DNA from: Narcine bancroftii
Taxonomy: Eukaryota
Direction of reading: 5' to 3'
NCBI RefSeq assembly: GCF_036971445.1
Contig: NC_091469.1
Coordinates: forward strand, 8,742,001 to 8,806,000
DNA length: 64,000 nucleotides
In this document: in pieces, positions 13,385 through 13,960 of the stretch
Layout: every line of letters starts with the position of its first letter
How positions within the stretch are numbered: position 1 is the stretch's first letter
Translations under genes and position numbers: made by a program
The notes under the pieces: model-generated
What the model saw: only the letters and a program-made list of their open reading frames with translations
Databases searched by the model: none
What the model was told of the DNA's origin: nothing

Positions 13385-13960
13385 GCCAAGAATGTTGCCA
13401 GGGCTGGTGAGTTGAACAGTAAGGAGAGGTTGGATAGGCCAGGACATTTTTTTCTGTTTGTAGGAAGGGAAGGGGAAACATTTTAGTTCTTTATAAAATC
13501 ATGAGGGGGATGGATAAGATGAATGGTTGCAGTCCTTTTCCCCATGTAGGGGCATCTAAAAGGAGAGGGTGCAGGTTTGAAGTGAAAAAGGGAACAAGAA
13601 GCCACCCTCAAGGCAATGCTCATGGCAACTCTTTGTCTGCCTTACAAAATTTATCATGTATATTACAGTTTTAACATATTATGTGACATTTAGAATGAAT
13701 CATTTTAACTTTTCATCCATTACATGGCTGGAAGTAGTGAGTCAATGGAGCCAGTCACCAAAATGGTGGGTCTGTGGGTTGAACTGCCAGAAGAAGTGAT
13801 AGATACAAGGCAATTGTCATGTTCAAAAGGCATTTAGACAGGACCATGAATGGGATAGAGTTAGAATGACATGGGGTGACTGCAGGGAAATGGGTCTGAT
13901 ATGGTAGGCATGCACAAGATGGGGTGAAGGGCCCGTTTCCCTGCTGACAAACTCTATGAT
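13385..13960 (+). mobile_element. Old CR1 3' fragment carrying a foreign insertion at about 13594-13766
   Basis: gagaggttggatagg, gaactgccagaagaagtg, gggtgaagggcccgtttcc 3'UTR motifs. Confidence 0.75.

Follow-up and report, generated by a model that had tools for sequence, protein, structure and literature searches.

An inverted templated insertion in a LINE fragment of Narcine bancroftii, copied across a nearby repeat boundary

The closest described counterparts of the event reported here come from human genomes. Among the 229 inversion sites characterised across 2,504 of them, 54% proved to be inverted duplications, almost always shorter than 1 kb and no more than 5 kb from the other copy; of the complex deletions, "Ins with Dup and Del" formed the most frequent class (Sudmant et al. 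2015, PMC4617611). The same anatomy is ascribed there to template switching, the mechanism of the class being described no more closely than as "potentially involving DNA replication errors" (PMC4617611). In cancer genomes, 472 instances of a loss with a nearby inverted duplication have been explained by copy-and-paste (PMC7025897).

The event that we describe lies in a 64,000-nt stretch of the Narcine bancroftii assembly (GCF_036971445.1, contig NC_091469.1, positions 8,742,001 to 8,806,000, forward strand), here called the window, and it belongs to the known class that in humans is termed "Inverted Dup" or "Ins with Dup and Del" (PMC4617611). As in the human Inverted Dup, the piece is shorter than 1 kb, inverted and less than 5 kb from its other copy (here 155 nt, 1797 nt apart); as in Ins with Dup and Del, a deletion, here of about 40 nt, carries a templated insert (PMC4617611). 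Those variants have short microhomology at the template boundaries (PMC4617611); the corresponding matches here, TGG and GG, are too short to exceed chance in one event. If our reading of a short filler holds, the two templated pieces also recall the human "MultiDup and Del" (PMC4617611). Unlike the human variants, which are polymorphic with both alleles seen, our locus is seen in the derived state only (PMC4617611). The cancer events share its topology; however, they are somatic, and the present event is small, sits in a genome assembly and is presumably germline (PMC7025897).

Three further systems come close. The four-point template switches of Walker et al. 2021 likewise yield a reverse-complement insert via two switches, and the filler alone resembles such an event (median length 12, maximum 128), however, the model has one inverted fragment in one fork, and here there are probably two, one of them templated 1.8-1.95 kb away (PMC7954356). 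The inverse-repeat class of polymerase theta products shares the inverted insert, the short microhomology and the deletion junction; its tracts are mostly shorter than 10 bp and templated within about 30 bp of the break, which does not describe a 155-nt piece from 1.8 kb away (10.1101/2019.12.20.882852). The filler alone, by its short tract and its likely template within about 50 nt, may qualify for that class. Inverted insertions at mouse meiotic breaks also have short microhomology at a deletion junction, and they begin at or near the deletion breakpoint, in contrast to 1.8 kb outside it here (10.1101/2020.06.23.168138, PMC13532658). A thin search of the open-access literature, which is not proof of absence, had no account of such events in sharks or rays among the papers listed.

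Inverted copy and its template

The locus consists of the following features.

13386..13594, plus strand: left flank, 3' fragment of the host LINE (nhmmer 13386-13586, profile 14-216, E 4e-17)
13595..13611, minus strand: filler, 17 nt long, or 19 nt if the GG shared at 13612-13613 is counted; probable inverted copy from within a lost host stretch
13612..13766, minus strand: insert, copied in inverted orientation from 15564-15718 (repeat end, about 90 nt; single-copy flank, about 65 nt)
13764..13766, plus strand: 3-nt microhomology TGG, where the copy's end and the resuming host overlap
13767..13961, plus strand: right flank, 3' fragment of the host LINE (nhmmer 13762-13961, profile 265-474, E 6e-24)
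15564..15628, plus strand: single-copy part of the template (depth as expected for single copy; one other window match with E < 0.05)
15629..15718, minus strand: portion of the template within the repeat, at the tail of a high-copy element (paralogue 5602-5871; depth)

Positions 13609-13766 and 15564-15721 form an inverted repeat of 158 nt that is 97% complementary, with 1797 nt between its arms, and this pair was the sole inverted repeat of at least 25 nt found in 10000-20000. The core, 13612-13766 against 15564-15718, is identical at 152 of 155 positions (BLAST within the window, E = 1e-76), the three differences lying at 13671, 13716 and 13736; extending the copy to 13609 adds a fourth, at 13611. 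These values bear out the 155-bp inverted copy proposed in an earlier reading of the letters (hereafter the sequence-only reading): 13612-13766 is an inverted copy taken from 15564-15718, over a distance of 1.8-1.95 kb, and the inverted pair is real. The left arm interrupts its host and the right arm runs on into its own repeat and flank, which supports the arm at 13612 as the copy and 15564-15718 as the source. Events that join a loss to an inverted duplication in a 2020 cancer-genome study were reportedly far larger in general. We also considered the arms as the termini of a TIR transposon and rejected this; the host LINE resumes in the same orientation inside the left arm, the source repeat runs on outside the right arm, and the outer flanks do not match.

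The arrangement was recovered in contigs of three public sequencing runs (X1, X3 and X4), which represent one sample, possibly the assembled one, and are not independent. In all three, a contig covering 13340-13641 crosses the host/filler boundary with 0 differences, and another, 13686-15644 (1959 nt), crosses both the right junction and the left boundary of the source, also with 0 differences, and has both alleles at 13716/15614 and 13736/15594. The differences at 13611, 13716 and 15614 each have a contig end at a distance of exactly 30 nt, as a two-copy graph predicts. At the filler/copy boundary, 13611/13612, the short side of the contig has 30 letters, one under our bridging rule (33 if the boundary is set at 13608/13609), and the listed contigs leave 13642-13685, including the difference at 13671, uncovered. 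Among the joints listed for X1, X3 and X4, none connects 13594 to 13767, as an allele lacking the insert would. A further run, X5, from another organism (organism B, share 0.06), does not cover the locus: its depth is zero in most single-copy bins and in 12 of the 30 bins overall, 15430-15629 among them. Only the derived state was seen.

Copy number was gauged from public-run contigs aligned to 13030-16029 at 85% likeness or more. Contig depth is not copy number, and we rely solely on a several-hundred-fold contrast: depth in bin 15530-15629 is 9.48, 9.48 and 7.74 (X1, X3 and X4), and it exceeds 2000 in every bin from 15630 to 16029 in the same runs. With an overlapping contig added, the depth expected of single-copy sequence in bin 15530-15629 is 8.8-9.5 (X1, X3) and 6.7-8.4 (X4); nearby single-copy bins have 7.0, 7.0 and 5.5. 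The source repeat is thus a high-copy element, continuing to at least 16029 by run contigs and depth. Within the window, 15564-15632 has just one other match with E < 0.05, which is the insert. Because 15564-15628 stands at single-copy depth and adjoins a very high-copy repeat, the source is local, and the data support a local template for 13612-13766 whose 65-nt part is single-copy. The local origin argued for in the sequence-only reading therefore held, and the multicopy element that it had named as the contrary case for 15564-15632 was not seen in the run contigs at 85% likeness or above. It had also placed the copy across a junction of repeat and unique sequence, which stands, with the repeat ending at 15633, which does not: the in-window paralogue 5602-5871 matches 15629-15890, putting the repeat end near 15629. 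The source was retained, and the event was a copy-number gain, as contig 13686-15644 crosses the source's left boundary and 15530-15629 has single-copy depth.

Host LINE, deletion and filler

The two host flanks are collinear and in the same orientation, at profile positions 14-216 and then 265-474 of a profile built from 15 of the 16 copies of the LINE 3' end extracted from the window. The host fragment matches the C-terminal frame of a neighbouring LINE of its family (blastp E 4e-7), which bears RVT_1 at 12027-12377 (E 6e-9), and this homology identifies the host as the 3' end of a non-LTR reverse transcriptase element. Its clade is presumably CR1, and the window's repeats are presumably of cartilaginous-fish type. 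Among ten chosen frames, Pfam matched three (two RVT_1, one rve) and found no domain in the host piece, the frame of the source repeat or the five other frames; Rfam gave 0 matches in the window, and two scans of metagenome contigs for more copies of the host family also gave 0.

Across the gap, ten of the 16 window paralogues have 43-47 nt; the other six, truncated or misaligned there, were left out. Allowing for 13594 as the last host base, which was set from the alignment, and for the shared TGG, the host lost about 40 nt at the insertion site, a stretch reconstructed from paralogues that are 45-61% identical to the host in the alignment. The replacement of a short host stretch by the insert, already part of the sequence-only reading, is confirmed by this loss and by the collinear host on both sides.

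Several other features of the window were recorded. The rve match (E 1.5e-9) lies in a frame with an integrase core domain at 16824-17297, probably a decayed LTR retrotransposon. A young repeat family has four copies of different length (9686-10799, 23371-24484, 35418-35906 and 39081-39412), 93-99% identical and with one end in common. A tandem array of units of about 105 bp, 94-97% identical, occupies 45938-46954. Assembly gaps (runs of N) at 37384-37560 and 45001-45129 lie outside the inverted pairs discussed here. In the host paralogue at 36040-36130, a weak hairpin surrounds the site matching the right breakpoint; with z = -2.1 and 7 of 200 shuffles folding as well, it was too weak to use.

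The filler had been described in the sequence-only reading as about 18 nt of unexplained sequence ahead of the copy. Its presence and size stand, and it can probably be explained. A search within 5 kb, as that reading had advised, gave no significant template (P 0.11-0.18, 300 shuffles), the best matches, 17033-17046 on the plus strand and 12663-12677 on the minus strand, being no better than those of shuffles. Nor was a significant template found window-wide (P 0.40-0.68, 60 shuffles), where no exact match is longer than the 10 nt at 17501. As a forward, diverged remnant of the host the filler scored P 0.08-0.35 and 0.30-0.89, and that candidate was rejected.

The reverse complement of the filler, in contrast, aligns to the middle of the gap, at positions 12-17 to 32-36, in all ten copies used. 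Against the lost stretch it gave P 0.002-0.005 with mononucleotide and 0.006-0.028 with dinucleotide shuffles, a range of 0.002-0.028 in reverse versus 0.30-0.89 forward; pairwise scores against random 20-mers of the window gave P 0.067. On a position profile, 13595-13613 reaches 8.6 bits, compared with a median of 8.7 for true host 19-mers (21 pieces) and an average of 1.7 for random window 19-mers (P 0.017). Two other choices of filler boundary gave profile P of 0.046 and 0.13, the latter for 13594-13611 against random window k-mers, and an 8-nt exact match between filler and lost stretch is not significant on its own (P 0.06-0.11). Overall, the inverted fit runs from P 0.004 to 0.13 with boundary and null, values to be read with boundaries picked after looking and with ten paralogues that are related and not independent. 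On this fit, the filler was probably copied in inverted orientation from the central part of the host sequence that was lost, which suggests an event of three switches.

At the junctions, the gap ends in TGG in six of the ten host paralogues, and filler and copy have GG in common, or four of five letters with one mismatch; these matches are too short to exceed chance in one event. The three core differences are all transversions; among the differences of the other inverted pairs in the window, transitions make up 11 of 14 and transversions three. Some of the core differences may therefore be copying errors made at formation. The sequence-only reading had taken three mismatches as the mark of an old, real event; the contigs show it to be real, and its age is not secured by differences that are all transversions.

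Other inverted pairs in the window

A self-comparison of the whole window, in which long-range pairs of high identity belong to repeat families, gave three more clear inverted pairs and one older pair within the 64 kb, each of two copies in the window.

19384-19621 / 21436-21662: inverted pair, 223/227 identical with an 11-nt gap in the copy
31276-31393 / 33239-33356: inverted pair, 115/118 identical, 1845 nt apart
38609-38736 / 39923-40050: inverted pair, 128/128 identical, 1186 nt apart
6994-7043 / 8996-9045: older inverted pair, 43/50 identical

In each pair, one arm interrupts a repeat, as judged by eye. At 19384 the source is part of a fairly intact LINE bearing RVT_1, and its copy took the place of the centre of a palindromic short repeat. 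The left arm at 31276-31393 sits between the inverted arms of a palindromic repeat, and the direction of copying is a judgement. The copy at 38609-38736 was inserted into a repeat that has a paralogue at 28005-28295, with almost no loss (28240-28295), and this pair is probably the most recent of all and the strongest candidate for a polymorphism. At 6975-7043, about 19 nt of filler precede the 50-nt inverted copy, the same anatomy as at 13595-13766; the copy seems to span a junction of repeat and flank, possibly in an older event. A further locus, 58395-58537 / 59732-59850, is complex and mainly a direct insert in a LINE: two direct pieces, of 20 nt (exact) and 71 nt (96%), stem from about 1.2-1.3 kb away, and after them comes an inverted piece of 36 nt (86%) that forms a fold-back junction. 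Copy number was measured for the source of the 13612 pair alone, and the other pairs rest on the self-comparison of the window.

The clear inverted templated insertions number four in 64 kb, about 1 per 16 kb, a density for which the human counts, being polymorphisms, give no baseline of accumulated events (PMC4617611). The five pairs have spacers of 1186-1952 nt (P 0.002 for the five values if spacers were uniform over 0-5 kb). It counts against a special spacing that inverted repeats lying close together may be lost more readily than others. Measured from the break to the far end of the template, the distances are 2002, 1952, 2052, 1963 and 1314, which places four of the five templates 1.95-2.05 kb away. 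A cluster of four values out of five within 100 nt has P 1.5e-4 if distances are uniform over 0-5 kb and 0.010 if they are uniform over 1-2.2 kb, for n = 5, a measure picked afterwards and the direct case at 58395-58537 left out; the youngest pair is off the pattern (1314), and the oldest, itself uncertain, holds a LINE of 1.35 kb between its arms. Abyzov et al. 2015 are said to have described a class with distant templates, a few kb from the breakpoints.

Origin of the insertion

We consider it very probable that the insertion arose through copy-and-paste by synthesis, of whatever kind, as favoured by the gain in copy number with an intact source flanked by single-copy sequence. The product reads, in order, host left flank, 17-19 nt of filler, 155-nt inverted copy and host right flank. 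That it was formed by template switching at a replication fork, of the FoSTeS/MMBIR type and as a long-range form of the four-point model, in a single germline event, seems to us an evenly balanced proposition. A stalled 3' end would leave its template and prime on the opposite strand 1.8 kb off via TGG/CCA. After 155 nt had been copied, it would jump via a 2-nt match (four of five with one mismatch), land on the same strand beside the stall point, copy about 19 nt of the stretch that was later lost, and finally return to its regular template; the steps could equally have run in reverse order. Both inserted pieces appear to derive from one strand, as expected if synthesis moved to the other parental strand at a fork, and switching is further favoured by a filler that fits the lost stretch only in reverse. 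The three transversions among three differences fit error-prone synthesis, as weak evidence. Junction matches as short as 2-3 nt lie close to the level of chance, and they do not distinguish switching at a fork from the repair of a break.

Fold-back repair of a double-strand break is possible, and we hold it more tentatively. After about 2 kb of resection, the 3' tail of the right end would loop back at a 3-nt match 1.8 kb away, be extended by 155 nt, perhaps to the end of the resected tract, and be released, and joining of the polymerase theta type to the left end would then add the short inverted filler. This path predicts inverted orientation, templates on either side and a limit of distance set by resection; each of the window's four clear pairs is inverted, and the source is placed on the right in three and on the left in one. 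Its last step has precedent in the inverse-repeat insertions that polymerase theta templates within about 30-50 nt, however, first-round synthesis by this polymerase rarely exceeds 10 bp, compared with 155 nt here, and distal templates account for less than 0.1% of its repair, compared with one 1.8 kb away here (10.1101/2019.12.20.882852). Fold-back after resection has been proposed for inverted insertions of 16-709 bp at mouse meiotic breaks (10.1101/2020.06.23.168138). The template of the filler lies in the lost stretch, and we infer that the resected end would have had to retain it as a flap. One event cannot tell fork switching from fold-back repair.

Capture of a fragment is improbable. 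Here a 155-nt piece of the sister chromatid or homologue, released for example by a meiotic double cut at a neighbouring hotspot, would have been joined into a break 2 kb from its origin, with the intact source chromatid inherited as well. The sizes agree: inserts from other hotspots in mouse measure 15-349 bp, with 0-2 bp of microhomology (10.1101/2020.06.23.168138), those of a later study 15-967 bp with a median of 95 (PMC13532658), and those of our window 50-227 bp. However, capture gives either orientation and all four clear pairs are inverted, it leaves an inverted filler from the lost stretch unaccounted for, and in cancer a gain in copy number of the nearby template favours copy-and-paste over cut-and-paste (PMC7025897). 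It is highly improbable that the insert is not a local copy at all (part of a multicopy element, a fragment retro-copied from elsewhere or a chimera of assembly or library), since, for all that about 90 of the 155 nt are high-copy repeat, the runs share one sample and the filler/copy boundary falls one letter short of the bridging rule, the 65-nt part is single-copy, the 1959-nt contig carries both alleles at two differences and has 0 differences in every run, and the insert lacks a tail and a target-site duplication. Target-primed retrotransposition was rejected, as the insert ends in single-copy flank with a deletion in place of a duplication.

The event itself is probably a neutral scar in a dead repeat. 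As a single case, it offers a clean teaching example of a copy that crosses the boundary of repeat and unique sequence, probably through three template switches. We regard it as unlikely that this genome, and its lineage at large, is dense in short inverted templated insertions with a preferred template offset of about 2.0 kb. If the pattern were true genome-wide, the events would be a fossil ruler of some fixed germline length, such as a resection tract, the uncoupling of a fork or a chromatin loop, and the offset could decide between fork switching and fold-back repair. At about 1 per 16 kb and with a sharp 2-kb offset, the genome would then hold very many natural replicates for this class of mutation.
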